A stretch of DNA of 64,000 bases, from positions 174,858 through 238,857 of the forward strand of contig JBAXUE010000001.1 in assembly GCA_037129835.1 (NCBI GenBank). Direction: 5' to 3'. The stretch comes from a bacterium. Lineage in GTDB: Bacteria > Patescibacteriota > CPR2 > UBA1875 > CAIMLA01. Each line of letters begins with the position of its first letter. Position 1 is the stretch's first letter. The notes below the pieces were generated by a model, which searched no databases, was not told the DNA's origin, and saw only the letters and a program-made list of their open reading frames with translations. Of this stretch, positions 11,989 through 46,896 are shown piece by piece. A program made the position numbers and the translations under genes.

Positions 11989-13029
11989 TTGAAAAATAGC
12001 TTTATCGACAAGACATTGGTTTATATAAAAGAGAAACTCTGGCCCAAACTACTTTTGGGGCTTATTGCTTTAGTTTTTTTGGTAGCTTTGATTACGTTTT
12101 TTATTTTTAGCAGTTTTATTAATACGGGTAATGGCGGTAAAAATGATACTAACTTTGTAGTAGTTAATGGCCAGGGATTAAAAGTAATATCTACAAATCT
12201 CAAGACCAAAAATATTATCAGTAACGACCTTTTGTTTATGATATATATGAAATATGCAGGCCTATCTGGGAATATTAAAGCAGGAGACTATATTTTATCT
12301 CCATCTATGACTCCGATGCAGATTGCAGATATCCTTTCCCAAGGTAAGGTCGCGAGCAGAACGATAACTATCCCTGAGGGTTGGACCGTGGCGGAGATCG
12401 GCACTTATCTTGAGAAACAAGGGATAGTAAAGAAGTCTGATTTTGTCTTAGCCTCAAATAAAGAATATTCTTATGATTTTCTGTCCAGCAAGCCAGCAGA
12501 TGTTGGTTTAGAGGGCTTTCTTTTTCCAGACACTTATCAGATATCTATTACTGCAGACTCTGAATCTATTATTAAAACAATGTTAGATAATTTTGGGAAA
12601 AAAGTAACTCTTGACATGCGTCTGGCTGCGAAACAAACTGGATTTAGTCTTTACGAGACTATTACTCTCGCTTCTGTCGTTGAAGAAGAAGCTAATAAAC
12701 CAGCAGATCGAAAAATAGTCGCCGGGATATTTATTTCAAGACTCAATGAGGATATGATGCTTCAGTCTGATGTTACAGTAGCTTATGCGCTCGGTGAAGA
12801 CAGAAAAGAGTTAACGGCAGCAGATATTTCCCTAGATTCACCGTATAACACCTATGTTGTAGCGGGTCTTCCTAAAGGTCCAATCAGTAATCCTGGTCTG
12901 GAATCTATAAGCGCAGTTATTTACCCAGAGATAACTGATTTCAGATACTTTATCGCGGCCAATGATCAGATTTACTATGCCAAAAATATCGAAGAACATA
13001 ACGCAAATGTGGCTAAATATCTCAACTAA
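11989..13029 (+). CDS. mltG: Endolytic murein transglycosylase MltG (YceG family)
   Basis: N-terminal TM, IPEGWTVAEIGTYLEKQGIV, and a YceG-like C-terminus. The ruvX-mltG neighbourhood is conserved. Confidence 0.85.
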   Translation: MKNSFIDKTLVYIKEKLWPKLLLGLIALVFLVALITFFIFSSFINTGNGGKNDTNFVVVNGQGLKVISTNLKTKNIISNDLLFMIYMKYAGLSGNIKAGDYILSPSMTPMQIADILSQGKVASRTITIPEGWTVAEIGTYLEKQGIVKKSDFVLASNKEYSYDFLSSKPADVGLEGFLFPDTYQISITADSESIIKTMLDNFGKKVTLDMRLAAKQTGFSLYETITLASVVEEEANKPADRKIVAGIFISRLNEDMMLQSDVTVAYALGEDRKELTAADISLDSPYNTYVVAGLPKGPISNPGLESISAVIYPEITDFRYFIAANDQIYYAKNIEEHNANVAKYLN

Positions 13030-13067
13030 AGTAGTTTATTAATAAAACTATTTTGTGCTCAATGTAC

Positions 13068-13096
13068 TTGACAAAACAAGCCAAATAGCTTAAAAT
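13068..13096 (+). promoter_or_regulatory. Sigma70-like promoter TTGACA-17-TAAAAT
   Basis: Perfect -35 hexamer with 17-nt spacing to the -10, upstream of the LysM/CHAP gene. Confidence 0.45.
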
Positions 13097-13113
13097 TTAT
13101 ACTGTTTTAAGTT

Positions 13114-14382
13114 TTGGAGGTGGGTATTAGTACTCACACAAAAAGACTAATCGGTTGGATAAAAAATATAACCGCCGTATTGGCAAAAATATATAATAAA
13201 ATTAGTCATAAAGACCCAGATGTAAATCTAGGCACCAATAATGATATTGCTGGGAAAAATATAGTAAGCAAGTCTGGTTTTAAAACAGCAAGAAAAAAAT
13301 TAATTGTTTTTTTTCGCAGTCCACTAAGTGATATTTCCCACGTAAGTGTGATTATTGTTATTTGTATTGCCCTAATCACAGGACTTTCTTCAATTGTACC
13401 TACAGGTGGTCAGGTGTCGATCAATCCTTTTCTTACTAAGAAGATTGATTCCGCCGCCAACTATGTTTCTTCTGATGAAAAAAGGATATTTGAGGCGGAC
13501 CTTGTTACTACGCTCGCAAGTATACACAGCGATAAGCTAGGCCAAGATGCCGCGTCCGTGACGGAAAGTCTTTATAAAAAAGAAAATAATACTTCTGCGG
13601 AAGTAACAACAATAGCTAATGTGCCATTATTGGCACCCGCAATTGCTACTAGTAGCCAAGTCGGTCCTACATCTACATACGTCGTTCAAGATGGTGACAC
13701 ACTTTCACAAATTGCCTCGAAGTTTAATATTTCTACTGACACAGTTAGGTACGCGAATCAGCTTGATGATGAAAATAGTATCAAGCCTGGCTCTAGCCTT
13801 ATAATATTGTCAACTAGCGGTATTTTGTATACTGCTGATCCGGGAGATACAATCGCATCAGTTGCAGCAAAATATAATCTCAAAGAAGATGATATTATTG
13901 CGCAAAATAATTTGTATGGTGACGAGCTCACCGTGGGGATGAAAATAGTTTTACCAGATGCAGAAATACCGGCAGCTCCGACTCCTACACCAGATCCACA
14001 AGAAGAATCCTCAGTAGGAAATAATAGTAATAATTATGATCCTGGTATTTCATATGTCAAAACATCAACTGGACCTAACCATTTTCCATATGGTTGGTGT
14101 ACTTGGTGGGTAGCTCAAAAACGATATGTTCCTTGGAGTGGTAATGCTATCGATTGGTATTATAATGCTCAGTCATATGGTAGGCCAGTTGGCAGTACTC
14201 CTGTACCAGGATCCATACTTGTAACAGCAGAAAGTGGTTATGGACATGTGGCTTACGTTGAATCAGTTAATGGCAACGGCTCATTTAATGTTTCGGAAAT
14301 GAATTATCAAGGCTGGGGCATCGCCTCAAATCGTACGATTAGTAGGGGTGACGGAACACCAATAATCGGGTTTATATACTAA
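13114..14382 (+). CDS. Peptidoglycan hydrolase: TM anchor, two LysM domains, C-terminal CHAP domain
   Basis: LysM motifs YVVQDGDTLSQIASKFNIS and YTADPGDTIASVAAKYNL. The CHAP region has a conserved Cys (YGWCTWWVA) and His (GHVAYVESV). The start codon is ambiguous (TTG at 13114 or downstream). Confidence 0.75.
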   Translation: MEVGISTHTKRLIGWIKNITAVLAKIYNKISHKDPDVNLGTNNDIAGKNIVSKSGFKTARKKLIVFFRSPLSDISHVSVIIVICIALITGLSSIVPTGGQVSINPFLTKKIDSAANYVSSDEKRIFEADLVTTLASIHSDKLGQDAASVTESLYKKENNTSAEVTTIANVPLLAPAIATSSQVGPTSTYVVQDGDTLSQIASKFNISTDTVRYANQLDDENSIKPGSSLIILSTSGILYTADPGDTIASVAAKYNLKEDDIIAQNNLYGDELTVGMKIVLPDAEIPAAPTPTPDPQEESSVGNNSNNYDPGISYVKTSTGPNHFPYGWCTWWVAQKRYVPWSGNAIDWYYNAQSYGRPVGSTPVPGSILVTAESGYGHVAYVESVNGNGSFNVSEMNYQGWGIASNRTISRGDGTPIIGFIY

Positions 14383-15835: not shown

Positions 15836-16756
15836 ATGAATATCAAGGAAGCTAGTATTTGGGCTAGAAAAGTCCTGAAAGATAACGAAGTTGACTCGCC
15901 AGAGGCATCTGCGGATTTTTTGCTCAGGCAACTTTTAGCCATTGATAAAGCTCAGATGCTGACTCACCCAGAAGAGAAAATACCCAAGCTACAAGAGCTT
16001 AAGTTTCGCCGCTGGGTAAAGAAAAGATCAAAACACGAACCAGTCTGGTATATTACTGGGAAAATTGAGTTTATGGAGCTAGATCTCGCTGTTAATCAAA
16101 GTGTTCTTATCCCGCGACCTGAAACAGAGTTATTGGTTGAGAAAATACTCGCTCAATACAAAATACAAAATACAAAATACAAAATATTAGATGTCGGTAC
16201 GGGTAGTGGGACTATAATTCTTTCTTTGGCAAAACATCTTCCTTTGTCATCCCTGGTCGCAAACCCAGGGATCTCTAGCGTTCCCTCCGAAGGAGATCCT
16301 CGTGTTCGTAAGGACAACATATGCTTTTTTGCCTCTGATATTTCTTCAACAGCTCTGGATACAGCTAAGAAAAACAAGAAAAATAATAATATTGCTCCAG
16401 AAATCAAGTTTGTGGAAGGGGATTTGTTCGGTCCTTGGGCGGGAGAAAAATTTGATCTTGTCGTTGCAAATCTACCATATGTGCCTCACGAAGACATGGC
16501 TACTCTCGCATTTGATTTAACTCATTATGAGCCAAGAGTCGCCCTGGATGGAGGTATCCTAGGTCTTGAAGTCTATAAAAGATTTATTGAAGAATTGCCA
16601 AATTATTTAAATCCTGGCGCGAAAGTATTTATGGAAATCGGTTATGATCAGGGAAGATATATCGAGGATTTTGTACATAAATATTTGCCGAAAGCAAAAG
16701 TAGAAACACTGGGTGACTACCGCCAAATTGATCGAATAGTTGTCATAGAAACCTAG
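15836..16756 (+). CDS. prmC: Release-factor glutamine methyltransferase PrmC/HemK with an in-frame ~25-aa insertion
   Basis: LDVGTGSGTI SAM motif and the NLPY (NPPY-type) catalytic motif. Extra segment LSSLVANPGISSVPSEGDPRVRKDN lies between the SAM motif and motif II. Confidence 0.85.
   Translation: MNIKEASIWARKVLKDNEVDSPEASADFLLRQLLAIDKAQMLTHPEEKIPKLQELKFRRWVKKRSKHEPVWYITGKIEFMELDLAVNQSVLIPRPETELLVEKILAQYKIQNTKYKILDVGTGSGTIILSLAKHLPLSSLVANPGISSVPSEGDPRVRKDNICFFASDISSTALDTAKKNKKNNNIAPEIKFVEGDLFGPWAGEKFDLVVANLPYVPHEDMATLAFDLTHYEPRVALDGGILGLEVYKRFIEELPNYLNPGAKVFMEIGYDQGRYIEDFVHKYLPKAKVETLGDYRQIDRIVVIET
16156..16183 (+). repeat. Heptanucleotide tandem repeat (ATACAAA)x4 inside the prmC coding sequence
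   Basis: Four perfect 7-nt units, translated as QNTKYKIL. Confidence 0.8.
16242..16318 (+). mobile_element. Internally deleted (~75 bp) copy of the palindromic in-frame insertion element, inside prmC
   Basis: Shares CTTTGTCATCCCTGGT-N5-AACCCAGGGATCTCTAGCG and GATCCTC-N4-TTCGTAAGGA(TG)ACAAC with the mnmA copy, both nearly identical. Lacks the central ~80 bp. Confidence 0.55.
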
Positions 16757-16816
16757 AAAACAAAACATATACGTGCTAAAATCTTTTCGTCATTCTGAAC
16801 TTGTTTCAGAATTCTA

Positions 16817-16892
16817 CGGGCCCTTAGCTCATCTGGTAGAGCGCGTCCATGGCATGGATGAGGTGGCAGGTTCGAGTCCTGTAGGGTCCACC
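16817..16892 (+). tRNA. tRNA-Ala (anticodon GGC), CCA encoded
   Basis: Cloverleaf folds manually. Acceptor GGGCCCT/AGGGTCC contains the G3:U70 Ala identity pair. Anticodon loop is ATGGCAT. Confidence 0.85.
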
Positions 16893-17058
16893 AGATATTC
16901 AGCAGGCCCTATTTTATTAAGATGGTTTGCACCGAGGAGGTAGCAGGTTCCCAGCCCGACAGAGTCATTCTGGCGGGAAGTCGTGCCCGCCCGCCCGTAG
17001 TATGACGAAGGAGGGTTGGGTCCACCATATTGACCCCATATTACTTGGTTGGAACAAA
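16893..17058 (+). other. GC-rich structured non-coding segment downstream of tRNA-Ala. Candidate ncRNA or tRNA-end remnant plus one copy of the intergenic repeat family
   Basis: Hairpin GGCGGG-N8-CCCGCC. GGGTCCACCA at 17018-17027 duplicates the tRNA-Ala 3' end. Positions 17010-17056 resemble the repeats at 19837 and 25425. The 62-aa ORF at 16927..17115 is unlikely to be coding. Confidence 0.3.
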
Positions 17059-17085
17059 GAGGTAGAAATACCTCTTTTTGTGTTA
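17059..17085 (+). terminator. Rho-independent terminator AGAGGTA-gaaa-TACCTCT + TTTTTGTG
   Basis: Perfect 7-bp stem followed by a T-run. Confidence 0.6.
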
Positions 17086-17095
17086 ATATTATCTT

Positions 17096-17740
17096 ATGAG
17101 GGCGTTATTTTCTGAACCAACCGTTAAATTCTGCGAAGAAGCAACCAGGGGTATAATCAAAAGACCTTATTATGCTTTGTCCAATTTTGCATTCTTCATT
17201 TCCGCAATCGCGATTTTCGTCAAGGGGAAGGGTTCAAAACTTTCAAAAATATTTGGCACCACCGCTTTATTAATCGGGTTCTTTTCTTTGGTGTACGATT
17301 CAACCTATATTTATCTTGCCCAGTTGTTTGATATCAGCGGGATGCTTTTATTTGTTAACGTTTTGTTATACCTAAATCTTAAGAATGTATTCAAAGCAAA
17401 AACCCTACTACTTACCCAGTTGCTTTTATTCGTTTTAAATATGATTTTAATTATCACTTTTCAAGGTCACTCGGGTAATATCATATTTGGATTATACATA
17501 ACTGCAGTAGTTGTTTCCGAGGTTTATTTAATAAATAGTAAGATACACACAAATTTATGGAAATGGTTGGTGCCCTTCGGAATTTTTATTATCAGTTTCC
17601 TGATATGGATTTTGGATGCAAGGAAAATATTTTGTTCACCTGTCGGGTTACTCAATGGTAGGGCAATATTTCATTATCTTAACGCGATTGTAATTTACCA
17701 GTTATACAAATTTTACGATTCACAAAAAGAGTTAACCTAA
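17096..17740 (+). CDS. Hypothetical polytopic membrane protein (about 6-7 TM)
   Basis: Hydrophobic periodicity only. No recognisable motif. Confidence 0.45.
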   Translation: MRALFSEPTVKFCEEATRGIIKRPYYALSNFAFFISAIAIFVKGKGSKLSKIFGTTALLIGFFSLVYDSTYIYLAQLFDISGMLLFVNVLLYLNLKNVFKAKTLLLTQLLLFVLNMILIITFQGHSGNIIFGLYITAVVVSEVYLINSKIHTNLWKWLVPFGIFIISFLIWILDARKIFCSPVGLLNGRAIFHYLNAIVIYQLYKFYDSQKELT

Positions 17741-17765
17741 ACAGATCGTTCCCAGTTCTTGCCAT

Positions 17766-17880
17766 TCCAACAATTCAAGAACCAACTGGTTCCAATGAGA
17801 TAACAGGCAGTCCACCATAAATTTAATGGCTAATTGGAGCCATTAAATTTATATACCCAATTTTCAGTTGGAACCTTTTT
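17766..17880 (+). repeat. Intergenic structured repeat, copy a (nested inverted repeats, GTCCACCATAAATTTAATGGCT core)
   Basis: Shares CAGTCCACCATAAATTTAATGGCTA-N-GAGCCATTA...TTTATATACC-AA-TTT-CAGTTGGAACC with 25425-25530. Outer inverted repeat GTTCCAA/TTGGAAC. Inner palindrome TTTAATGGCT/AGCCATTAAA. Confidence 0.6.
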
Positions 17881-17939
17881 AGGGATAAATACAAATAATA
17901 ATTTGCCCACTAATGCTATAATTATGAAAAGGAGAAACT

Positions 17940-18320
17940 ATGAATAAAAATATAATATATGTAATTATTGCTGTCGTGATTGGAGTATTGGCTGTCGGTG
18001 GCTATTTTGTTTTTCGAAATAATGGTAATAATACGAATAACAGCCAAAAGCAAACAACAACTCCAACAGCAGCTGAAACAACTAATTCCGTTAGGATTAA
18101 GGACTTCGCCTTTAGCCCGTCAGAAATAAAAGTAAAAAAAGGTACCACTGTAACTTGGAAAAATGAAGACTCGGCAACGCATAAGATAAAGTCAGACGCC
18201 TTTGAGTCAGGTGATCTTGCAACTGGTGATACATATCAATTTAAATTCGAGAGCACGGGGACATTTAGTTATATCTGTTCCATACACCCCTCGATGAAAG
18301 GAACGGTGACTGTAGAATGA
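17940..18320 (+). CDS. Membrane-anchored type-1 copper (cupredoxin; amicyanin/plastocyanin-like) protein
   Basis: N-terminal TM, Thr-rich linker, and a cupredoxin fold with ligands H (ATHKI) and C-x2-H-x2-M (CSIHPSM), an amicyanin-type spacing. Confidence 0.6.
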   Translation: MNKNIIYVIIAVVIGVLAVGGYFVFRNNGNNTNNSQKQTTTPTAAETTNSVRIKDFAFSPSEIKVKKGTTVTWKNEDSATHKIKSDAFESGDLATGDTYQFKFESTGTFSYICSIHPSMKGTVTVE

Positions 18321-18538
18321 TAAGAGAAATTGCTACATTCCAAATCCTCGGCCTCCCTGTAGTTGTCTATGGGGGATTGGTGACATTAACAGCATTTGCC
18401 TTTACGGCATATATAGGATATACAAACAAAAGCGGCAAGGGGAAAATACCATTCAAGTGGCACTCCAGAATGGTAATAGCCTCTTTTGTCCTTGCACTTA
18501 TTCATGCATTCTTTGCTATTTCATTGTTTGTTGGATAG
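18317..18538 (+). CDS. Small two-TM membrane protein
   Basis: Two hydrophobic helices. Stop/start overlap with the upstream gene. Confidence 0.35.
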   Translation: MIREIATFQILGLPVVVYGGLVTLTAFAFTAYIGYTNKSGKGKIPFKWHSRMVIASFVLALIHAFFAISLFVG

Positions 18539-18551
18539 GAAGTGAGGTTTA

Positions 18552-18834
18552 TGTGACTAGAGTAAAAATAAGTGATTCAAACATAAGGCATTGCCGATGC
18601 CCTGGGTGTCCGGTTCAGGTTGAAAGTGATTGTGCAAATAGGATATTAAAAGAAAAAAAGGTAGATGAGAGTGCCGGTAATATAGGTGAACTTTACTGTG
18701 CTACGGGAAAATCCACTTGTAATGATCTTAATAAAAATGAAACCTGTATTTGTTCATCATGTCTTGTCTGGGATGAAAATAATCTTGGTTCAATGTATTA
18801 CTGTCTCCGTGGTAGTGCGGAAGATAATGGATAG
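18552..18834 (+). CDS. Small cysteine-rich protein (about 94 aa, about 14 Cys), possible metal-binding domain (DUF2769-like?)
   Basis: GTG start after a GGAAGTGAGG RBS. Motifs CRCPGCP, CxNDLNKNETCICSSC and YYC. Family assignment is from memory only. Confidence 0.4.
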
Positions 18835-18845
18835 AGTTTGATCTG

Positions 18846-19796
18846 ATGAATATACCCGATATTATCGAATCTTTTGGTTTCCCGGTTACTTTAGCTTTTT
18901 CAGCAAAAGGTAGAGCATTTTTTAGCGAAAGAATAACTGGTAATATTTGGGAAATAAAGGGAGACAAGATGGATCTTGTTTACAAGTTCCCAATTGTAAA
19001 TATTTCAGGGCATCACGAGACTGGGCTCATAGGAATCGCGGTGGATCCTGATTTTGACATCAGCGGTTATATATATGCTTTCTATACCTATGGTCGAGAT
19101 GAATACTCGATGAAGAATAAAGTGGTTCGATTCTTAGTTGGAAGCGGGAAAGAGGAGACGATTTTAGATAATATTCCTGCTGGCCGAATCCATAATGGCG
19201 GCATCATCGCCTTTGCTCCGGACAAAACCCTATATATCGGCGTTGGTATCGGTAACGAGGTTATGGATAGGTCTCAAGATATCGACTATCTCGGAGGTAA
19301 AGTCTTACGAATAAATAATGATGGCTCGATACCTAAAGATAACCCGTATAAGGAATCTCCGGTTTACTCCTATGGTCATAGGAATATATTTGGCCTCGCG
19401 TTTCATCCTAAAAATGGCAAACTCTTTATAAGCGAGGATGGCCCAGAAAAAAATGACGAAATAAATATTATCCAACCCGATGGAAATTACGGCTGGCCGG
19501 AGGTTACGGGAAAAGTCGGGAGTCCAAAGTTTGTAGACCCCATCATTACCTATACTCCCACTATTACTCCTACCCAATGTTGTTTTGATGAAAAGTATTT
19601 TTACTTTGGGAGCTATAATGATGGGGCAGTACATCGATTAACACTTGGTGGAAAGGATTATAATAAGGTCGAAAAGGATGAGACTGTATATCGTGGGAAA
19701 TCATTCGGGGTAATCGGGGTTTTCCATAGCCCAGATCACCAGTTTTATGTTACAACACCGAATAGAATCTCAAATTTTTCTCCAGAGGTAAGCTGA
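18846..19796 (+). CDS. Soluble quinoprotein glucose/sorbosone dehydrogenase-like beta-propeller (GSDH family)
   Basis: HNGGIIAFAPDKTLYIGVG, GGKVLRINNDGSIPKDNPY, YSYGHRNIFGLAFHP and GNYGWP, as in PQQ-dependent sugar dehydrogenases. Confidence 0.7.
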   Translation: MNIPDIIESFGFPVTLAFSAKGRAFFSERITGNIWEIKGDKMDLVYKFPIVNISGHHETGLIGIAVDPDFDISGYIYAFYTYGRDEYSMKNKVVRFLVGSGKEETILDNIPAGRIHNGGIIAFAPDKTLYIGVGIGNEVMDRSQDIDYLGGKVLRINNDGSIPKDNPYKESPVYSYGHRNIFGLAFHPKNGKLFISEDGPEKNDEINIIQPDGNYGWPEVTGKVGSPKFVDPIITYTPTITPTQCCFDEKYFYFGSYNDGAVHRLTLGGKDYNKVEKDETVYRGKSFGVIGVFHSPDHQFYVTTPNRISNFSPEVS

Positions 19797-19836
19797 TAAC
19801 TATATCTTTGAGTTCTTCCAAGCCATCAGTTCTTTA

Positions 19837-19930
19837 ACCAATAAGTTCCAACTATTTTCGAAGTAGTCCACCATTTTGACCACATCGAAAATACTTGGAA
19901 CCAAGGGGAGACACGAAAGTGTCTCTTTTG
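19837..19930 (+). repeat. Intergenic structured repeat, copy b, ending in the terminator hairpin GGAGACAC-gaaa-GTGTCTC + TTTTG
   Basis: ACCAATAAGTTCCAACTATTTTCGAAGTAGTCCACCAT shared with copies c and d. Internal inverted repeat GTTCCAACTATTTTCGA / TCGAAAATACTTGGAAC. Terminator at 19907-19930. Confidence 0.6.
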
Positions 19931-19982
19931 TATTCTAAAAGGTGTTTTTATGGGTTATTATATACTCAGGTATAGGGGGAAC

Positions 19983-22823
19983 ATGAAAATAGCTAAATTT
20001 AAACTTGCTTACCTTGGCCTTTCGGTGCTTTTGCTTATCTCAGCAACTTTTGTTGGTTTCAAATTTCTTTATAATAATTCTGCAGGTCAGCTAGCCAAGG
20101 GCTCATTTTATATTAGCCAATTTATTGACTCGAACTGGAAGGAAATCTACGACGAGTCCTTTGGGGTCGAATATCAAACTAAAACTTTTACTATTGCACC
20201 ACGTGACGGCAAGGTTCAGATACAGATAAATCAAAAGAATATTCCTTATTCGGATGTTGAATTTGTCCATTTGAATGCTTGCGGGGTGAATATTACTCCT
20301 GAATACGCAAAGTATGCGGTTACCGGTGAGAGCGTCCTAGCGGATATATCGGCCGATGATAATAACGTAATCGTCGCCCACGAGAAGCCAGTTGAAATAC
20401 TTTGGAACATGCCAATTGGTTGTACAGGCACAGCCACCATGACGATGAAGGCGAACGAGTACAGCTCAGCTGAAGCAGGAGCAATTCGCTTTCCATACTC
20501 TGGTGCTCCTAATCAGACTTATCAATTTATAAACAACGGAACCATCACCATAGACGGTAACATCAAGGAAGTTGACGGCATCGCCACTCCAAACTATTCA
20601 CCTACTTGGCTATCTGGCACTGGCCATCCTGGAGGTAGTACATATATCTATATGCAAGATGATGCAAAATACGTCTATCTTTCATATGACATCACCGGTG
20701 ATAATACCAATGAGCACGGACCTGACTGGCTCAAGATCATGGCGCTAAATACTAAAGACGGTAAAGAAAAAGAATATAAGATAAATGATGATCCAGGCCA
20801 ATACGGTCAATGTGGTTTTGGTCTGACTGGTAAAGTTTCATACAAACACCAGACATGTGAGGCAAAGATACCAAAGGCAGATCTGGTTGGTAGTCATCTC
20901 TCATTCTACTCGCTGTATTATGGAACTTTTTCAGGACCTCAGTTTAATAATTATCCTAGCGTTATAACAAGCCCATCAAATACACTGCCGGTTGTGAAGG
21001 GAATGGTATCTGACAATAGCGAAACTCCGGGAAACATCGGGGCTGTAAAATTCCGTGTCAGAGATAGAAATTCTTACTCGACCAGAGAAGAAGACAGTGG
21101 GGCATATGATGGTGTTTGCACTGCAGATGATGGAGTATTCTCTGGGTCTGAAGAGAATTTCACCTGTACTGCCACCGAAGCACTCTCTTATGGCATTAAC
21201 TATGCCTTTGATCTGGAGCTAACTCTGGAGGGCAGTAGTGTCCCGAATGCATACGGAGAGGCCGATTTTACACTCTACGATAATGATTATTCAATCGTTC
21301 ATGATTATAGCGACACCCTGGGTAGTTATCCAATTGGTCAATTTGTAAAGAATGGCAACAAGCTATACGGTGCTACAACTAGTGGTGGTGAACATGGCTA
21401 TGGCAATATATATTCGATGAACATAGACGGTACAAACATGACCAGTATTCACTCCTTTGATGGACAAGGTGATGTAGCTGGCGGTTACACAGTCAGTAAT
21501 TCCTTGGTTTTATCGGGTTCATATCTGTATGGTATGGTCCAAGGTGGAGGCGATGTCGATCAGGGCGGTGTATTCAGACTGAATGTAAACGGAAGCGACT
21601 ATTCAATGATTCACTCATTCAGCGGGTCCACCGACGGATACACCCCCTATGGTTCACTGACTGTATTAGGGAGTCGTCTGTATGGTATGAATGTCAATGG
21701 GGGAATAAATAGTCGGGGAACTATTTTTGGACTGGATATGGACGGGACCAACTTCTCGGTTATTCATAGTTTTGCAGGTCCTGAAGGTGGTAATCCTTTT
21801 AGCACCTTGATTGAGTCGGGTGGCGTTCTGTATGGTATGACAAACTCCGGTGGACTTCAGGATAATTTTGGTGTAATCTTTTCTATCTTGCCATCCGGTG
21901 CCGACTATCATATTTTACATTCATTTTCTGCATCTGATGGCTTTCAGCCGAGTGGGTCATTAACGCTCATTGGGGAAACACTGTTTGGGGCGACTCAGAG
22001 TAGCGGAGCAGAAAGTGGCAATGGGATTATCTTTAAAATCCAGAAGTCTGGGGCCGACTATTCTATCATTCATAATTTTGGCGATGATTTAAACGATGGG
22101 GACCTACCAACATATTCGTCGCTTCAGCTTTGGGGTGACAAACTATATGGAGTCACTGACATCGGGGGAGATAATAACATGGGGACAATATTCTCTATAA
22201 ATACGGATGGTACTGGCTACTCGCTGTTACATGAATTCGCTGGAGGCCCCTATGATGGTCAAACGGGTAGATTCTCGGTGCTCATTTCTAATGGCGTGCT
22301 TTACGGTACGACTTTTTATGGTGGCACATCAAGTCAGGGTGCCATGTTCAAAATGACACTTCCTGGGGCTGTCAGTAACCCAGGCAGTAGCGGTCCAGTA
22401 TTCACGAATCTACCCAGCGCTACCACGGTTATCAATATTACAGATGGTCAGACCATCACTACAAATCCCTATACTTTAAAAGTGAAGCCAACAGATGCCG
22501 ATGGTATTCAAAAGGTTGAGTTTTATATCGATAATATCCTTATCTGTACTGATACTACCGCCGATGTTGATGGCGTATATTCATGTGATTGGGATACTAG
22601 TAAATATCACTCAGATGTTAAAGTCTTGGCTTATGATACGAATGGCAATGTATCCACTGCACTAACTCGTTCGGCTACTGTGAGGCTGGCCAGTACGACT
22701 ACAGGAACATTGCCAGAGACAGGTGGTAAGAATAATCTAGGAAACATCTTATGGCTCATCGGTTTACTCGGCGTAGCGTTCGTAGGTGCTCGTTCAACAC
22801 TAAAGGATAAGGGAGGGGAATAA
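19983..22823 (+). CDS. Large sortase-anchored surface protein: signal peptide, N-terminal domain, about 8 tandem ~40-aa beta-propeller-like repeats, Ig-like domain, LPETG sorting signal
   Basis: Repeats of the form G-x-LYG-x-T-x-GG-x4-G-x-[IV]F-x-[IL]-x3-G-x3-S-[IV]-[IL]HSF (GloVer-like). C-terminal LPETGG followed by a hydrophobic segment and a basic tail (ARSTLKDKGGE). ATG at 19983 preceded by an AGGGGGAAC RBS. Confidence 0.75.
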   Translation: MKIAKFKLAYLGLSVLLLISATFVGFKFLYNNSAGQLAKGSFYISQFIDSNWKEIYDESFGVEYQTKTFTIAPRDGKVQIQINQKNIPYSDVEFVHLNACGVNITPEYAKYAVTGESVLADISADDNNVIVAHEKPVEILWNMPIGCTGTATMTMKANEYSSAEAGAIRFPYSGAPNQTYQFINNGTITIDGNIKEVDGIATPNYSPTWLSGTGHPGGSTYIYMQDDAKYVYLSYDITGDNTNEHGPDWLKIMALNTKDGKEKEYKINDDPGQYGQCGFGLTGKVSYKHQTCEAKIPKADLVGSHLSFYSLYYGTFSGPQFNNYPSVITSPSNTLPVVKGMVSDNSETPGNIGAVKFRVRDRNSYSTREEDSGAYDGVCTADDGVFSGSEENFTCTATEALSYGINYAFDLELTLEGSSVPNAYGEADFTLYDNDYSIVHDYSDTLGSYPIGQFVKNGNKLYGATTSGGEHGYGNIYSMNIDGTNMTSIHSFDGQGDVAGGYTVSNSLVLSGSYLYGMVQGGGDVDQGGVFRLNVNGSDYSMIHSFSGSTDGYTPYGSLTVLGSRLYGMNVNGGINSRGTIFGLDMDGTNFSVIHSFAGPEGGNPFSTLIESGGVLYGMTNSGGLQDNFGVIFSILPSGADYHILHSFSASDGFQPSGSLTLIGETLFGATQSSGAESGNGIIFKIQKSGADYSIIHNFGDDLNDGDLPTYSSLQLWGDKLYGVTDIGGDNNMGTIFSINTDGTGYSLLHEFAGGPYDGQTGRFSVLISNGVLYGTTFYGGTSSQGAMFKMTLPGAVSNPGSSGPVFTNLPSATTVINITDGQTITTNPYTLKVKPTDADGIQKVEFYIDNILICTDTTADVDGVYSCDWDTSKYHSDVKVLAYDTNGNVSTALTRSATVRLASTTTGTLPETGGKNNLGNILWLIGLLGVAFVGARSTLKDKGGE

Positions 22824-22828
22824 ATACT

Positions 22829-24829
22829 ATGAATTTTAATTTAAAAAAGACATTCAGCAATATTTTAGTTTTTGTTTTTATGTTTAATTTTTTAATGCCA
22901 GTAGCCCAGGCTGCAGCGCCAGTACAAAGTGTTTTTTTATACGAGCCTGGGGTTAGTCCAACCAATATTCAAATAGACTTTTATCCAAACGAATGGAGCG
23001 ATGTAATAGATTATTGGACGGTTGAATACAAAAAAAGTACCGATACTACCTGGACATCTATGCTATCCGCAAATAACGGGGGCAGCAATTGGGCGCGCAT
23101 TACCGGCTTGTTGCCGGGAACTTCATATGATATTAGGGTTTATGCGACAAACAGTGATGGACAGGGTCCATATAGTGATATTACTACAGTTTCTACCCCG
23201 TCATATGGGCCTGCTGCAGTAGATTTTTTTGGCAGTGGAAGAAACGACTATGGTGAGGATTGGACCGAGTCTAATAGCGACAATACAAATACGTCTTTTA
23301 GTAATCCTAGCGGTGTCGCCATAGACAAGAATCATCATAGGTTATTTGTTGCTGATGGTGGTGGCGATGGTGATCGTAATCATAGAATTATGGTCTTTAA
23401 TCTGGATAGTAATAATGAACCCCTGGACCACATAGCAGATGCGGCAATTTACTCTGTGGATATAGATGGTGATGAGTCGCTTTTGAGAGCGCCAAGAAAT
23501 GTCTTGTACGATAATGACAGTGACACCTTATTTATAGCTGATAGTGATAACGGTAGGATTGTGGTTGTAGATGGCTCCGAGGATCTTATTGTCGAGGGTA
23601 CAGAAGACGACCCTTGGGCTATCCCAGTGGCACAGAACATCTTGGGAGCTGGCGATTTTGATTACCCTCTTGGTATGACCCTAGACAGTGTAAATGGCAG
23701 ATTGTTTGTTGCAGAGAAAGATAAAACAAAAGGTAGTGTTTACGGCAGTGTAAACGTATTTGACGTAAGACCTGCAGGAAGTACTGCAAAAACGATGTGT
23801 GGTGTAACTACAACGGGCATCGAAGATACGACTCCTTCATGCAGCTTGTGGGCAAGTGATGCACTTAGACCTAGAGATGTTGCCTTTGATAGCGTAGGTC
23901 AAGTTCTTTATGCTGCGTATGCAGACCAAAATAGGGTTTTGTCCTTTGATGCTAGAGCTGAGGAAAGTGAAAATAAAACAATGTGTGGAGTGACTACGAC
24001 TGGACTACCCACTAGCGATACAACTGCCATGACCCCATCTTGTGTTTTGGGTCAAACAAATATGGATGATACCGATGGCGATACCACTCAAAGTGGACTA
24101 GATGTTCCCAGAGGTTTGTGGTTTGATCAAGATAACGACCGCCTGTTTGTAGCTGATTTGGGTAATAACCGCGTTCTACAGTTTAATGGTCTGTCATCTA
24201 TGACTAATGGCATGGATGCGACTGCTGTTTTTGGACAAGGGGCCTTTACACAAGACAATAGTCAAACAACTCAATATGAGCTCGATAGTCCAAATGCAGT
24301 TACTATAGACCCTATCACCAAGCGTTTATATGTTAGCGATAACCAAAACAATCGTATAATGGTCTTTGCCTTAGAGGATCCACCAGAGCCACCAGCAACC
24401 CCACCAACTTTCGTCGATTTACCTGGTACAAGCTCTGCTATTAACGTCACCGAAGGCCAAACGATTACAACCAACCCATACACCATAAAGGTAAAACCAA
24501 CAGATACTGACGGTATCAAGAAAGTCGAGTTCTATATCGATAATATTCTTATTTGTACCGATACAACAGCAGATAGTGACGGTGTCTACTCCTGTGATTG
24601 GGATACCTCGAAATACCACTCTGATATCAAAGTGCTGGCCTATGACACAAATGACAATGTATCAACAGCCCTAACTCGCTCTGCTACTGTGAGACTAGCT
24701 AGTACTACTACAGGAAAGCTTCCAGAAACTGGCGGTAATAATAATCTAGGAAACATCTTATGGCTCATCGGTTTACTCGGCGTAGCTTACGCAAGCAGAC
24801 GCCTGATGCTCAAAAAAATAAATATTTAA
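22829..24829 (+). CDS. Sortase-anchored surface protein: signal peptide, fibronectin-III-like domain, about 6 NHL-type beta-propeller repeats, Ig-like domain, LPETG sorting signal
   Basis: Signal peptide MNFNLKKTFSNILVFVFMFNFLMPVAQA. NHL-like repeats (SNPSGVAIDKNHHRLFVADGG...NHRIMVF, NNRVLQF, NNRIMVF). C-terminal 130 aa are about 90% identical to the C-terminus of the upstream gene, including LPETGG. Confidence 0.75.
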   Translation: MNFNLKKTFSNILVFVFMFNFLMPVAQAAAPVQSVFLYEPGVSPTNIQIDFYPNEWSDVIDYWTVEYKKSTDTTWTSMLSANNGGSNWARITGLLPGTSYDIRVYATNSDGQGPYSDITTVSTPSYGPAAVDFFGSGRNDYGEDWTESNSDNTNTSFSNPSGVAIDKNHHRLFVADGGGDGDRNHRIMVFNLDSNNEPLDHIADAAIYSVDIDGDESLLRAPRNVLYDNDSDTLFIADSDNGRIVVVDGSEDLIVEGTEDDPWAIPVAQNILGAGDFDYPLGMTLDSVNGRLFVAEKDKTKGSVYGSVNVFDVRPAGSTAKTMCGVTTTGIEDTTPSCSLWASDALRPRDVAFDSVGQVLYAAYADQNRVLSFDARAEESENKTMCGVTTTGLPTSDTTAMTPSCVLGQTNMDDTDGDTTQSGLDVPRGLWFDQDNDRLFVADLGNNRVLQFNGLSSMTNGMDATAVFGQGAFTQDNSQTTQYELDSPNAVTIDPITKRLYVSDNQNNRIMVFALEDPPEPPATPPTFVDLPGTSSAINVTEGQTITTNPYTIKVKPTDTDGIKKVEFYIDNILICTDTTADSDGVYSCDWDTSKYHSDIKVLAYDTNDNVSTALTRSATVRLASTTTGKLPETGGNNNLGNILWLIGLLGVAYASRRLMLKKINI

Positions 24830-25380
24830 GACTTATCCTTGCTGGGGTTGGGGTTGCTTCGCTTCTTGCTTTTGGTATTTTCTTTCCATGGAAACCATTT
24901 GCCGATAACTTGTTCAACAAGAATGGACTAAACATCACCATGTCTAAAGAAGAAGAGGGATCCTTTCAAGATTTTGGTATAGAGATACCGAAGCTTGATG
25001 TAAAAGCGCCGGTTATGGCCAACGTAAATGGTGATAATAAGTCAGAATACAACAAGTCACTGACGAAGGGACTCGCTCACTACAAGGGGACCTCTCTACC
25101 TGGCGAAAAGAGCAATATCTTTGTTTTTGGTCACTCAAGTAGCGACACAGACGGTGGACGTTACGCTAAAATATTTAGAAAACTAGACGATCTAAAAAGT
25201 GGCGATAAGATAACTGTGTATTATAAGAGCAAGAAACATGAGTACACAGTAACCGATAAGAAAGTTGTCGAGGCCGACGACCTTTCACCTCTCAACCTGA
25301 CTGATGGTGAACAGCTAACTTTGATGACCTGCTGGCCGATAGGAACCGTAGAAAAGAGATTGATAGTTATCGCGAAATAG
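24760..25380 (+). CDS. Sortase (transpeptidase), N-terminal TM anchor
   Basis: Catalytic His in IFVFGHSS, TLxTC motif LTLMTCWP, and a downstream Arg. The ATG at 24760 has an AGGAAA RBS and overlaps the last 70 nt of the upstream LPETG gene in another frame. Confidence 0.8.
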   Translation: MAHRFTRRSLRKQTPDAQKNKYLRLILAGVGVASLLAFGIFFPWKPFADNLFNKNGLNITMSKEEEGSFQDFGIEIPKLDVKAPVMANVNGDNKSEYNKSLTKGLAHYKGTSLPGEKSNIFVFGHSSSDTDGGRYAKIFRKLDDLKSGDKITVYYKSKKHEYTVTDKKVVEADDLSPLNLTDGEQLTLMTCWPIGTVEKRLIVIAK

Positions 25381-25424
25381 CATCTATTCTAGACTGATTC
25401 AGCACTTTCCAGGCGAGTAATTCC

Positions 25425-25530
25425 TTTACCAACAAGTTCCAACTATTTTCGACGCAGTCCACCATAAATTTAATGGCTATTTAGAGCCATTATTTTTATA
25501 TACCAAATTTACAGTTGGAACCTTTGAGCG
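25425..25530 (+). repeat. Intergenic structured repeat, copy c
   Basis: Near-identical to copy a over CAGTCCACCATAAATTTAATGGCTA and TATATACCAAATTTACAGTTGGAACCTTT. Confidence 0.6.
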
Positions 25531-26891
25531 TGAGATGGTATTATTTCGGTATGGAGCAACTAGGTCAAAATCAATCAATCGAAACTGATGACGTTAAACC
25601 GCCAGAAGTCTTTGAGGCTAAAGCAGATGCTGATCCTGCCTTGGCGGCATATTCTTCTCAACCTGAGAATAATCCACTCTCGCAAGCTTTTATGGAAAAA
25701 TATGGGGTTGAATATTCCGACCCTCAAGCCTTAGCTGAAAATCCAGACAAACCTTCACCGGAAATTTCTATGGTGATCCCGGTTCACAATGAGGGTGAAA
25801 GTATTGTTGGGTTGCTCGAGTCCCTAGCGTCACAGGTAAGCGATAAAAGCGCCGAAATTGTATTAGTAATAAATAATGACACAGTCGGGACTAGAGACAT
25901 TATTGATAAGGCAATCGCGGAAGGTAAAATTGACGGTTCTAAATTGCGCCTAGTCGATTGTAGCTACGAAACAAAAGAAGATGGTGATGCTAAGATGGGC
26001 GGGGTTGGGTTAGCCAGGAAAATTGGTATGGACTATGCCGTAAGCTCTGGCTCTGAAACGATAGTCTCCTTAGACGCAGACTGGAAGGTCGAAGACGGCT
26101 TTATTGACCAGGTTGACCAAACAATGTCGCCAGATATCGATGGATTCACCTTTCAAACTGAAGGAATTGCTAACGATGATAGTTCACGTGAATATATGAG
26201 GGTGATGGGTCAGGTCCAGCGCTACAGAGAAGCACTAGGTATTTCTGCAATAAAAAAAGAGGTTGATTTAGAATCGCCGCTAGACAAGAATACAGGTGCA
26301 GTCCATGTGGTCAGAGCTTCTAGCTATGCCAAGGCTGGTGGCATGGTCCCTGTCGTCACAGGTGAGGACGGTAGGTTTGGTGCAAGGGTTTCTGAGAGTG
26401 GCGCTCGACTAAAGAAATCAGAAATTACAGTTGGCGTTGAAATTAGGGAGAGTGACACGCCGGGTGGTCAAGGGGAAAGCCTAAAGAAATTCAACGAAGG
26501 CCTTGTTACAAACCCAGATAAGCCGGGCGAATATATCACGATTGATGAGGCTCAAGAAAAGATGGATAACAGCAAAGAATTTCAGGCAGAACAGAAAAGA
26601 CAAGAAAAAATTGATGAGATCTCAAAAGAACTTATCCAAGAACTTACTAGTTTTTATAACAATAACAAAGAAAAATTACAGACATTAGAAATTGAAGACA
26701 TTGATTCAATTAAAGAAGAGGCAAATACCAGTCCGCTAATAAGCAAGTATCTACTATCTTCAGAGAACGATTTTAGCCAACTGATTGGGATACTTAAGGA
26801 CAGCACTACAGTAGATCAATTCATTTCGGGATTAAGAGATAAGCTGGGCGACGCTGTTAAGGGAAGGGTAGAGGAGTCCGTAGCTTCGTAA
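25515..26891 (+). CDS. Family-2 glycosyltransferase with long C-terminal charged/coiled-coil tail
   Basis: ISMVIPVHNEGESI and a DxD (LDAD) arrangement. C-terminal 130 aa are Lys/Glu-rich. Confidence 0.6.
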   Translation: MEPLSVRWYYFGMEQLGQNQSIETDDVKPPEVFEAKADADPALAAYSSQPENNPLSQAFMEKYGVEYSDPQALAENPDKPSPEISMVIPVHNEGESIVGLLESLASQVSDKSAEIVLVINNDTVGTRDIIDKAIAEGKIDGSKLRLVDCSYETKEDGDAKMGGVGLARKIGMDYAVSSGSETIVSLDADWKVEDGFIDQVDQTMSPDIDGFTFQTEGIANDDSSREYMRVMGQVQRYREALGISAIKKEVDLESPLDKNTGAVHVVRASSYAKAGGMVPVVTGEDGRFGARVSESGARLKKSEITVGVEIRESDTPGGQGESLKKFNEGLVTNPDKPGEYITIDEAQEKMDNSKEFQAEQKRQEKIDEISKELIQELTSFYNNNKEKLQTLEIEDIDSIKEEANTSPLISKYLLSSENDFSQLIGILKDSTTVDQFISGLRDKLGDAVKGRVEESVAS

Positions 26892-26916
26892 ATCTTCTTC
26901 CATTCTTTTAACTCTC

Positions 26917-27015
26917 CCACCAATAAGTTCCAACTATTTTCGACGCAGTCCACCATATATTTAATTGCCGATTCGGGTCATTATTTTTTTGTACTTATTT
27001 TTCGCTGGAATGAAA
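26917..27015 (+). repeat. Intergenic structured repeat, copy d (3' half degenerate)
   Basis: ACCAATAAGTTCCAACTATTTTCGACGCAGTCCACCATATATTTAAT is shared with copies b and c. The right arm has diverged. Confidence 0.5.
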
Positions 27016-27083
27016 GAGGGCGTTTGATTTCTGCTTTTCGATATTATTGAGTTATAATTAAACAAATAATTATTAGGGGGGAT

Positions 27084-27788
27084 ATGTTTTTATATAAAAT
27101 AAACAATCTGACAAAAACTTACGGCGAAAAAGAGGCCAAAGTAGTTGCGCTAAATGACATCAATCTTGAGATTCCTTCAGGGAAATTTATAGTTATTCTG
27201 GGAGCGAGTGGCTCAGGTAAAAGTACGCTGCTAAATATTATGGGAGGTATGGACAAGCCGACTTCGGGCGAAGTCTTTTTTAATGATCAAAGTATTTCAA
27301 AATATAATAAAGGGGAACTAACAAAATATCGGAAAAGTAATATTGGTTTTGTTTTTCAATCATATAATCTACTGCCAGATCTAACAGCTCTTGAGAATGT
27401 AGAATTTTCAACAGAAATAGCCAAACTACCGAGGATAAAAGCAGAAGAAGCCTTGGGTCTAGTAGGGCTAGATAAGAGACAAAGACATTATCCAAGTGAA
27501 ATGTCGGGTGGCGAGCAACAGCGTGTATCTATAGCAAGGACGCTGGCCAAGAATCCGAAGGTTTTACTTTGCGATGAACCAACAGGAGCCCTTGACTATA
27601 AAACGGGCATCAAGGTCCTTGAACTACTCCACAACGTACACGAAGACGGACTTACCTCGGTGATAGTGATTACTCACAACCAAGATATTGCCAAGATTGC
27701 TGATATGGTAATAAAGATGCGCAGCGGTGAGATAATTGATATAAATGAAAACAAAAAGCCGCTCAAGCCTTCGGAAGTGAAGTGGTAA
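27084..27788 (+). CDS. ABC transporter ATP-binding protein (MacB/LolD/FtsE-like)
   Basis: Walker A GASGSGKST, signature LSGGEQQRV, Walker B LLLCDEPTGALD. Confidence 0.9.
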   Translation: MFLYKINNLTKTYGEKEAKVVALNDINLEIPSGKFIVILGASGSGKSTLLNIMGGMDKPTSGEVFFNDQSISKYNKGELTKYRKSNIGFVFQSYNLLPDLTALENVEFSTEIAKLPRIKAEEALGLVGLDKRQRHYPSEMSGGEQQRVSIARTLAKNPKVLLCDEPTGALDYKTGIKVLELLHNVHEDGLTSVIVITHNQDIAKIADMVIKMRSGEIIDINENKKPLKPSEVKW

Positions 27789-27789
27789 G

Positions 27790-30108: not shown

Positions 30109-30389
30109 TGGTCCCGCTTTTTTGTAAAATTCTTAAAACGGTTTGGTCCGGTGACCGTTAGTCACATTTATTTGGCGATATTGACACTAGAATATAACAG
30201 TAATTTGTGCTAAGATAACGTGATTATATCGTCATATAATATTTAAAACATATACAATAAAATAATAAATTATCAAAATAATAATAAGTTCAAACTAAAT
30301 AAATATTTTCCGTACGGTCAGCATGTTTTACCGGCAACAAAAGGGCTGCAATCTTAGTTTTGTACCCTTGCGAAAATAAAGGAAACGAT

Positions 30390-32372: not shown

Positions 32373-32406
32373 TTATTCTTCCTTAATACTGAGTTAAGAT
32401 TATAAC

Positions 32407-33036: not shown

Positions 33037-33067
33037 AGGCTTTTTTCTGCTAGAATGTAGCTTAATT

Positions 33068-35506: not shown

Positions 35507-35509
35507 GTG

Positions 35510-46335: not shown

Positions 46336-46342
46336 ATGGGCT

Positions 46343-46370
46343 GAGGCCAGAATGCAAGCATTCTGGCCTC
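46343..46370. terminator. Hairpin GAGGCCAGAATGC-aa-GCATTCTGGCCTC after uvrB
   Basis: Perfect 13-bp inverted repeat. Confidence 0.5.
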
Positions 46371-46379
46371 ATAAATCTC

Positions 46380-46760: not shown

Positions 46761-46829
46761 TCACATGTCTATTATAATACAGCAAGTCAAAAATAGGAAT
46801 AATTAGGCCTCTTGGGGCGCGTAAAAGCC

Positions 46830-46858
46830 TTGAAATATCTTGACATCCGCTGTAGAAT
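46830..46858 (+). promoter_or_regulatory. Sigma70-like promoter TTGAAA-17-TAGAAT for uvrA
   Basis: Hexamers with 17-nt spacing, 39 nt upstream of the uvrA ATG. RBS GAGGTGAGG. Confidence 0.45.
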
Positions 46859-46896
46859 GGAGGAGTTCTATCGCTAATTTTTGAGGTGAGGTCAAG

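Follow-up and report, generated by a model that had tools for sequence, protein, structure and literature searches.

A mosaic copy of tRNA-Ala(UGC) behind tRNA-Ala(GGC), a probable relic of recombination at a tRNA-Ala hotspot

Displaced tRNA gene fragments reportedly mark the ends of islands integrated in tRNA or tmRNA genes, an observation credited to Williams in 2002. Serine recombinases act on att sites that are imperfect palindromes of roughly 40-50 bp, and their 2-bp crossover alone makes no long direct repeats. With respect to RNA, 3'ETS-leuZ of E. coli is a small RNA derived from a tRNA 3' external transcribed spacer, and it is not tRNA-derived in sequence. An acceptor-TΨC minihelix, minihelix-Ala, is said to go back to Francklyn and Schimmel. 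Finally, a regenerated tRNA gene accompanied by a displaced fragment is a documented signature of tDNA-integrating islands, as set out in the Islander report (PMC4383910). Here, we analysed the segment that follows a tRNA-Ala(GGC) gene in a 64,000-nt stretch of bacterial DNA (the window). Seen against these systems, the segment is most likely a new example of an ordinary, known kind of feature.

The segment downstream of tRNA-Ala(GGC)

The features of the locus, in window coordinates, are the following.

16754-16782, + strand: promoter-like site upstream of the tRNA, TAGAAA-17-TAAAAT with TG before the -10 (by consensus match only)
16818-16893, + strand: intact tRNA-Ala(GGC) with encoded CCA and G3:U70 (ARAGORN; Rfam RF00005, 55.1 bits)
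16894-16903, + strand: spacer of 10 nt, from the CCA to the start of the tRNA-derived copy
16904-16910, + strand: AGGCCCT, perhaps left over from the 5' acceptor strand GGGCCCT (6/7; gapped alignment to the tRNA-Ala(UGC) of locus L077)
16911-16924, + strand: AT-rich 14 nt without tRNA homology, where a tRNA would have 24 nt of D-arm and 5' anticodon-stem strand
16925-16950, + strand: block A, GTTTGCACCGAGGAGGTAGCAGGTTC (blastn; local and gapped alignment to tRNA-Ala(UGC))
16951-17017, + strand: GC-rich (64%) palindromic insert of 67 nt (fold of 16943-17027)
17018-17027, + strand: block B, GGGTCCACCA, acceptor 3' strand, discriminator and CCA (identical in the window's tRNA-Ala(GGC) and the tRNA-Ala(UGC) of L077)
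17028-17055, + strand: AT-rich spacer, unique in the window
17056-17085, + strand: intrinsic terminator AAAGAGGTA-GAAA-TACCTCTTT with T-rich tail (terminator scan; also in the MFE fold)
17096-17740, + strand: ceramidase-family membrane protein gene (Pfam PF05875), the first of ~13 kb of lineage-specific DNA

The preliminary description of this DNA had named a tRNA-Ala(GGC) gene and, downstream of it, a strong terminator, and both were borne out. ARAGORN and Rfam agreed on the tRNA at 16818-16893, which is separated from the prmC stop codon by 61 nt; on the 5' side of the tRNA-Ala(GGC)/prmC locus are obg, a LysM/CHAP gene and yceG. The terminator has the make-up of a rho-independent one, with a 9-bp stem (17056-17077), a 4-nt loop and the tail TTGTGTTAAT after the stem's TTT, and it is the sole terminator-like site from tRNA-Ala(GGC) to the next gene, which starts at 17096. 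Judging by this arrangement, the segment is probably transcribed from the tRNA promoter as a tRNA trailer that would run up to the terminator.

The base composition changes sharply across the segment. GC content was 56.7% over 16894-17027, compared with 38.9% for the whole window; it amounted to 64% over 16951-17017, 35.5% over 16894-16924 and 34.5% over 17028-17085. The previously noted GC enrichment is therefore real, and the enriched stretch measures ~134 nt rather than 190 nt, since 17028-17085 has 34.5% GC. Similarly, the second copy of GGGTCCACCA is exact (17018-17027, compared with 16884-16893) at a spacing other than the 126 nt given earlier: the copies lie 134 nt apart end to end (129 start to start), and the exact repeat is 10 nt only. 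The GGCGGG/CCCGCC hairpin was located at 16972-16977 and 16986-16991. An intergenic repeat family was also said to have a copy here; 17030-17055 turned out to have no second copy in the window (at most 3 mismatches; blastn-short), and no other copy of any part of the segment was found elsewhere in the window. Four GGGTCCACCA-like sites were read (6599, 21624, 24376 and 31729), those at 47522 and 61112 being left out; all four are in protein-coding-looking sequence and look unrelated.

Block A covers the anticodon loop (UGC), the 3' strand of the anticodon stem, the variable loop, the 5' strand of the T-stem and the start of the T-loop. Specifically, 16925-16950 matched positions 31-56 of the tRNA-Ala(UGC) of L077 (GGGCCCTTAGCTCATCTGGTAGAGCGCCTCGTTTGCACCGAGGAGGTGGCAGGTTCGAGTCCTGTAGGGTCCACCA) in 25 of 26 nt, and 16927-16950 matched positions 34-57 of the tRNA-Ala(UGC) of locus L072 in 23 of 24 nt, with a local alignment z of 13.5 relative to shuffles. 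Against the window's own tRNA-Ala(GGC), from which the L077 gene differs in the anticodon arm only, block A gave a match of 17 nt only (z 4.3). Block B was identical (10/10) to the 3' end of the L077 tRNA-Ala(UGC), and blocks A and B are collinear and in the same orientation. The segment thus shows the significant collinear identity to a bona fide tRNA gene by which tRNA-derived sequences are recognised. For AGGCCCT at 16904-16910, the chance of a 6/7 match was p ~0.01 by rough estimate. Block A and AGGCCCT were both overlooked in the preliminary description.

Taken together, these alignments identify 16904-17027 as a broken mosaic copy, close to full length, of the gene for the sister isoacceptor, tRNA-Ala(UGC). 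It keeps the stretch from the anticodon loop to the start of the T-loop plus the last 10 nt with the CCA; the D-arm is lost, and with it the anticodon stem's 5' strand. Earlier, the segment had been thought to re-use the tRNA 3' end and, as one option, to be a tRNA-derived element. Both ideas hold in part: the same GGGTCCACCA end is present and the segment is a mosaic tRNA-Ala copy, but the copy is of the UGC type and its source is not the adjacent GGC gene or that gene's own end.

The Rfam search that had been suggested returned the tRNA and nothing for the segment: on 16894-17085, no tRNA, tmRNA or other family was found at the gathering threshold or at E<=10. The same stretch failed the tRNA test (cloverleaf; family threshold of 29 bits). 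ARAGORN with intron, relaxed, mitochondrial and tmRNA settings reported the GGC gene only and no second tRNA or tmRNA; its -ps70 setting produced a call at 17005-17084 that spans the terminator and is therefore spurious. A tmRNA identity was rejected, as neither ARAGORN nor Rfam gave one and the segment is only ~124 nt long. Since cloverleaf detection fails, the segment is no functional tRNA or tmRNA, and it should be annotated not as a gene but as a pseudogene or fragment derived from tRNA-Ala(UGC).

The 67-nt insert (16951-17017) stands in for 10 nt of the T-loop and the 3' strand of the T-stem, a net gain of 57 nt. It is an imperfect palindrome with three nested helices, namely 16950-16957/17013-17020, formed by CCCAGCCC/GGGTTGGG (8 bp), 16964-16968/17002-17006 (GTCAT/ATGAC) and 16972-16977/16986-16991 (GGCGGG/CCCGCC). 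The predicted RNA fold of 16943-17027 had an energy of -38.7 kcal/mol (z -3.28, with 0 of 200 shuffles equally stable), and that of 16894-17085 had a z of -2.79. Nothing resembling the insert was found among tRNAs, in the remainder of the window or in ~80 related loci. An origin from tRNA-Ile or another tRNA was also considered and dropped, no alignment being above chance (z at most 2). Three exact-pattern scans of IMG/VR contigs for the insert and the segment, a blastn search of GenBank phages for the segment and an IMG/VR protein-profile scan for element ends all returned nothing.

The locus in related genomes and the DNA next to it

Comparing the tRNA-Ala locus across related genomes, as the preliminary description had proposed, separated the tRNA from what follows it. 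The relatives of PrmC place the bacterium itself among the Saccharibacteria (Patescibacteria/CPR). Three metagenome contigs of the same strain (L060-L062) were 100% identical over the locus and offered no variation. The tRNA-Ala(GGC) itself was identical in L060-L063 and L079. In L079 (PrmC 92%) the end of prmC, the spacer and the tRNA were identical as well, and right after the CCA the sequence switched to a minus-strand ORF; L063 (PrmC 88%) showed the same picture, and in both the identical tRNA was followed, directly after the CCA, by the 3' end of a recombinase gene. L080 (PrmC 81%) had the tRNA, a terminator and an unrelated gene, without the fragment and with downstream DNA unrelated to that of the window, so that it does not make a clean empty site; clean pairs came only from the analogous cases L002/L005 and L074/L075. 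The contig of L078 (PrmC 99%) stops inside the tRNA. There was no trace of the segment in the more distant L001-L006 (PrmC 50-64%) and no homologue of it among the relatives of the ceramidase gene (67-75% identity), and none of the relatives with the prmC-tRNA-Ala(GGC) locus had a second tRNA-Ala beside it. A conserved-ncRNA test on related loci, viral contigs and phages recovered only 100% identical same-strain copies as homologues, and Rfam on seven related loci found tRNAs and one 23S start only. The segment lacks conservation in relatives. With no counterpart in L079, L063, L080, L001-L006 or the ceramidase relatives, it is thus specific to one strain or species.

In L063 and L079, the tRNA-Ala(GGC) site is occupied by a recombinase gene. 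The ORF after the CCA in L063 and L079 was 58% identical to protein P0001 and 49% to P0002. P0001 is the C-terminal third of a frame of 534+ aa in L072 that has one internal stop, and the N-terminal part of this frame contains Resolvase, Recombinase and Zn_ribbon_recom domains, which makes it a large serine recombinase. Genes resembling Replic_Relax (relaxase-like) and VirD4/TraG adjoin the recombinase in L072, where the element abuts tRNA-Ala(UGC); P0002 abuts the tRNA-Ala(UGC) of L077. The same tRNAs are thus attachment sites in related genomes, in L063 and L079 at the GGC gene and in L077 and L072 at the UGC gene. In all four loci the recombinase frame runs on antisense into the tRNA ('VDPTGLEPATSS...').

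Near the tRNA in the window, no recombinase domain was found among the ORFs of at least 110 aa at 11989-14382 and 17096-36001, excluding 18457-18834 (Obg and PrmC by Pfam). The spacer region 16894-16926 showed a weak similarity to the L063 recombinase 3' end (p ~0.03, in one of six tests, the others being non-significant). The antisense frame through the GGC tRNA has no stop along the entire segment, and BLASTP with this frame gave recombinase homology over 21 tRNA-encoded residues only. A 43-aa antisense peptide through the pseudo-tRNA was discarded after a full HMMER scan that retrieved only unrelated repetitive proteins. Large-serine-recombinase elements at the CCA end of both tRNA-Ala genes are less familiar than tyrosine-integrase islands, and the antisense run of the recombinase frame into the tRNA is worth following for gene flow in reduced-genome episymbionts.

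The tRNA borders DNA that varies between lineages. According to tblastx and Pfam, the ~13 kb of lineage-specific DNA extends to ~30300 and encodes, besides the ceramidase-like protein, a cupredoxin, a glucose/sorbosone dehydrogenase, surface proteins, a sortase, a glycosyltransferase and an ABC/FtsX transporter. In L001, L002, L003 and L005, homologues of the window genes at 30360-35506 (a HAD hydrolase and LeuRS, with a glycosyltransferase in L001 only) lie just downstream of tRNA-Ala(GGC). In the window, ~13 kb of additional genes therefore separate the tRNA from these conserved neighbours. No recombinase was found in this ~13 kb, and no far-end repeat of the region was visible at 30109-30359. 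The ceramidase homologue lies directly downstream of tRNA-Ala(UGC)-tRNA-Ile(GAU) in L075 and L076 and likewise in L074, there upstream of 23S rRNA, an order that may point to a joint move of fragment and ceramidase gene. In L081 a ceramidase gene is found beside a serine recombinase.

Copies of tRNA 3' ends recur elsewhere in related loci. Counting copies of the last 12 nt of a tRNA with at most 1 mismatch and at most 600 nt downstream, we found one for 3 of the 23 tRNA genes in Saccharibacteria loci. L002 has an exact 20-nt copy of the tRNA-Ala(GGC) end at 4223-4242, 147 nt after the gene, and L005 is its empty counterpart, with the same downstream gene and no insert. L074 has an exact 19-nt copy of the tRNA-Ile end at 848-866, after a hairpin-rich insert, for which L075 and L076 are the uninterrupted counterparts. 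At 534-569, L074 also contains a perfect 14-bp hairpin capped by GAAA and followed by ACCA, with a G·U third pair. The inserts of L002 and L074 share no sequence with that of the window.

Origin of the segment

We consider it probable that 16904-17027 is a non-functional mosaic relic of tRNA-Ala(UGC) in the 3' trailer of tRNA-Ala(GGC), generated by recombination at a tRNA-Ala hotspot. Under this model, the two tRNA-Ala isoacceptors would serve as attachment sites for large-serine-recombinase elements and border variable DNA, and site-specific or illegitimate recombination at these genes would have given rise to the segment, a displaced or element-borne partial tRNA copy staying behind once the body of the element was lost. 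As to the route, an element-borne tRNA-Ala(UGC)-like arm may have been left beside the host end, elements at the two alanine tRNA genes may have rearranged with one another, or a once-adjacent gene may have decayed. The trailer, relic included, would be removed in tRNA 3' maturation, and the relic would have no function of its own.

An attL/attR-like remnant had been among the options raised at the outset, and it gained indirect support from the recombinase elements at the tRNA CCA in relatives and from the inserts of L002 and L074; against it, the window contains no recombinase or element body. As at an island end, a same-orientation 3' copy lies downstream of the intact gene, with GGGTCCACCA present twice and block A upstream of the second occurrence; being of the UGC type, this copy matches the adjacent gene over 17 + 10 nt. 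Neither an integrase nor any other recombinase or element body is found between the tRNA and the fragment. With only 10-31 nt there, the length of the 'island' is thus essentially zero. A simple attR model fits poorly, because a UGC-type copy stands at a GGC locus and may retain a 5' acceptor remnant; the GC-rich insert at the place of the T-loop and the presence of serine recombinases at the site are further misfits to a textbook attR. Viral and phage scans revealed no element end homologous to the segment. An insert with 64% GC and a fold z of -3.28 in a 39% GC genome is, moreover, unexpected in a long-decaying relic, and this counts against our preferred explanation.

Foremost among the alternatives, though unlikely, is a functional tRNA-derived small RNA, transcribed together with tRNA-Ala(GGC) and then freed from its 3' trailer. 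The GC-rich three-tier hairpin and the tRNA-like ...GGGUCCACCA 3' end would stabilise such an RNA, and enzymes that process tRNAs or recognise CCA might take it as a decoy or a substrate; a regulatory role as a trailer-derived RNA would be another option. The stability of the fold (-38.7 kcal/mol, z -3.28; z -2.79 for 16894-17085) would suit such a molecule, as would a GC content of 57-64% in a 39% GC genome and the position of the terminator, which follows just after the segment with none between tRNA and segment. It would also suit the pattern of decay, in which the tRNA blocks are near intact (25/26 and 10/10) and the neighbouring parts fully replaced, and the hairpin with ACCA at 534-569 of L074 is in a comparable position. 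However, no Rfam family was found even at E<=10, and the segment is absent at the orthologous locus at PrmC identities of 92%, 88% and 81% and upstream of ceramidase homologues. The window and the related loci hold no second copy, the available copies are identical and so lend no covariation support, and the L002 and L074 inserts have no sequence in common with it. Poor conservation had been named in advance as an observation that would speak against an unrecognised small RNA, and it is what we found. The proposal therefore comes down to the stable fold, with no Rfam family and no presence in relatives.

Next in order, and improbable too, is an att site still open to recombination, either attB or an attL/attR pair, or else a miniature element that is not autonomous, with a large serine recombinase supplied in trans. 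The imperfect palindrome at 16950-17020 beside a tRNA-like 3' end would then, with equally little probability, be DNA-level machinery and not a dead scar. In its favour, close relatives have elements with a large serine recombinase placed precisely at the CCA of either tRNA-Ala gene. The insert is a palindrome bounded by inverted repeats of 8 bp (CCCAGCCC/GGGTTGGG), att sites of serine recombinases are imperfect palindromes of roughly 40-50 bp, and short inserts between tRNA 3'-end copies recur in L002 and L074. Against it, the palindrome does not coincide with the point where L063 departs from the window, directly after the first CCA, but lies 57-127 nt beyond. Neither the recombinase-proximal junctions of L063, L072 and L077 nor the inserts of L002 and L074 resemble the insert, which had no second copy in the loci or viral contigs searched.

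Third, and again improbable, an ancestral tandem tRNA-Ala(UGC) gene may have decayed in place, independently of any mobile element, by deletions and a single insertion. Such a gene could stem from a tandem duplication in which the anticodon arm diverged, or could be the vestige of the tRNA-Ala(UGC) found ahead of the ceramidase gene in relatives. With the possible 5' acceptor remnant (16904-16910) the copy comes close to full length, both alanine isoacceptors are identical outside the anticodon arm, and tRNA-Ala(UGC)-tRNA-Ile precedes the ceramidase homologue in L074-L076. We rejected that synteny as proof of an in-place vestige, as it is confined to L074-L076 and the ceramidase gene has other accessory contexts elsewhere; these varied contexts, including the serine recombinase of L081, make the synteny argument weak. 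No relative with prmC-tRNA-Ala(GGC) has an adjoining second tRNA-Ala, and the damage consists of block replacement, not of scattered point substitutions. In any case, decay in place would have the same outcome as recombination at the hotspot, a dead tRNA copy, and only the route would differ.

Last and very improbable, trailer hairpins ending in an acceptor 3' strand and NCCA would mimic the top half of a tRNA in Saccharibacteria or, as DNA, serve as serine-recombinase attachment sites, with the window segment and the L074 534-569 hairpin as examples; if true, the RNAs might be substrates of RNase P or 3' exonucleases and be recognised by the CCA-adding enzyme or AlaRS, and the DNA sites would belong to elements with a recombinase frame antisense through the tRNA.

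Comparison with known systems

As a probable relic of recombination, the segment alone matters little, being a lineage-specific scar. Its value is that of a marker: it points to tRNA-Ala(GGC) as a hotspot of recombination at the border of ~13 kb of accessory genes in this Saccharibacteria genome.

Minihelix-Ala resembles the segment in having a long hairpin immediately upstream of ...UCCACCA, and resembles the perfect 14-bp hairpin of L074 534-569, with its ACCA and its G·U at the third pair. In contrast to minihelix-Ala, the predicted window helix leaves no clean single-stranded NCCA, its third pair is not G·U, and it has no T-loop. The 3'ETS-leuZ RNA lies, as the segment does, between a tRNA 3' end and an operon terminator, so that the segment would be part of the tRNA precursor. 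The two differ in that the window segment lacks conservation and that 3'ETS-leuZ is not tRNA-derived.

With tRNA pseudogenes and truncated tandem copies, the segment shares its descent from a tRNA, a cloverleaf that is gone together with the D-arm and the T-arm, and its invisibility to tRNA finders. Unlike them, it has decayed by block replacement and insertion of a GC-rich palindrome, not by point mutations, and it probably belongs to the same transcription unit as a functional tRNA.

The tDNA islands differ from the window in several respects. Only 10-31 nt lie between gene and fragment in the window, and no integrase is left; the site is associated in relatives with large serine recombinases and not with the usual tyrosine integrases; and the fragment comes from the sister isoacceptor (UGC) and has a 67-nt insert in its T-loop. 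The likeness is nevertheless close. The islands, as described in the Islander report (PMC4383910), show the arrangement seen here, an intact tRNA followed by a same-orientation partial copy with the same acceptor 3' strand and CCA. As in the islands, moreover, elements integrate at this tRNA in close relatives of the window, where lineage-specific DNA adjoins it.

Serine recombinase genes at tRNA-Ala genes

Large serine recombinase genes adjoin the CCA end of tRNA-Ala at four loci of relatives, the tRNA being tRNA-Ala(GGC) in L063 and L079 and tRNA-Ala(UGC) in L077 and L072.

Large serine recombinase genes adjoining a tRNA-Ala CCA end
L063 2159-2563, minus strand
L079 2159-2563, minus strand
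L077 19-525, plus strand
L072 6810-8510, plus strand

At all four loci this CCA end is the point of abutment, and the recombinase frame reads the tRNA antisense, giving '...VDPTGLEPATSS...'; the final ~20 codons are therefore set by the tRNA sequence. The antisense frame stops in the D-loop in L063, L079 and L077, while that of L072 passes through the tRNA and continues beyond it. The L072 copy contains one in-frame stop and is neighboured by relaxase-like and VirD4-like genes.

The region behind the window tRNA-Ala(GGC) gene

Approximately 13 kb of genes (window 17096-30300) separate tRNA-Ala(GGC) from the conserved GT1/HAD/LeuRS genes, which lie close behind the tRNA in relatives L001-L005. 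This stretch is a lineage-specific accessory region, encoding a ceramidase-like protein, a cupredoxin, a glucose/sorbosone dehydrogenase, two large Big_7/NHL surface proteins, a sortase, a GT2 and an ABC/FtsX transporter; no recombinase was found within 17096-30300. An exact 11-nt match to the tRNA-Ala 3' end (AGGGTCCACCA) occurs on the opposite strand at window 31729-31739 (minus strand), within a GT2 glycosyltransferase gene, and is probably due to chance, even though this is improbable for an 11-mer.

Other GC-rich and repeated sequences

Two further non-coding stretches of the window are GC-enriched, 49975-50067 and 46336-46896, and neither matched Rfam at the gathering threshold. The former contains a strong hairpin (GCGGGCAGACCC-TTAG-GGGTCTGCCCGC, 50031-50058) just upstream of an ORF at 50075, and no large ORF occurs in the latter, a gap of 560 nt. 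At the tRNA-Ala(GGC) locus of another relative, L006, tRNA genes are preceded by a repeated module of ~75 nt (4328-4400 and 4800-4880), and a GC-rich unit (GAGGCGCGCGGTATTCGTAAATACCGCACCGTCGTCACTCGGAAA) is present as a tandem duplicate downstream of tRNA-Ala(GGC) (4455-4575). The tRNA-Phe gene of this locus (4606-4678) is partly masked by N.

Inserts next to tRNA genes and a minihelix-like hairpin

Two short hairpin-rich inserts end in exact copies of a tRNA 3' end, and for both an uninterrupted counterpart site is present in other relatives (L075/L076 and L005, respectively).

Hairpin-rich inserts ending in a tRNA 3'-end copy
L074 673-866, ~190 nt, 3' of tRNA-Ile, 19-nt copy of the tRNA-Ile 3' end
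L002 4076-4242, 167 nt, 3' of tRNA-Ala(GGC), 20-nt copy of the tRNA-Ala(GGC) 3' end

The order in L074 (270-2683) is tRNA-Ala(UGC), tRNA-Ile(GAU), a ceramidase-like gene, a histidine phosphatase gene and the 23S rRNA start, so that protein genes lie between spacer-type tRNAs and the 23S gene. The start of this contig (1-58) resembles a sequencing-library adaptor (…GTCTCGTGGGCTCGGAGATGTGTATAAGAGACAG) and looks like assembly contamination. Between its tRNA-Ala(UGC) and tRNA-Ile, L074 carries another insert of ~150 nt, which L075 lacks. This insert ends in a perfect 14-bp hairpin (534-569) with a GAAA loop, a G·T third pair and ACCA directly 3' (GGGGTAGTTCAGGC-GAAA-GTCTGAACTACTCC-ACCA), which resembles a tRNA-Ala acceptor/T-arm minihelix.
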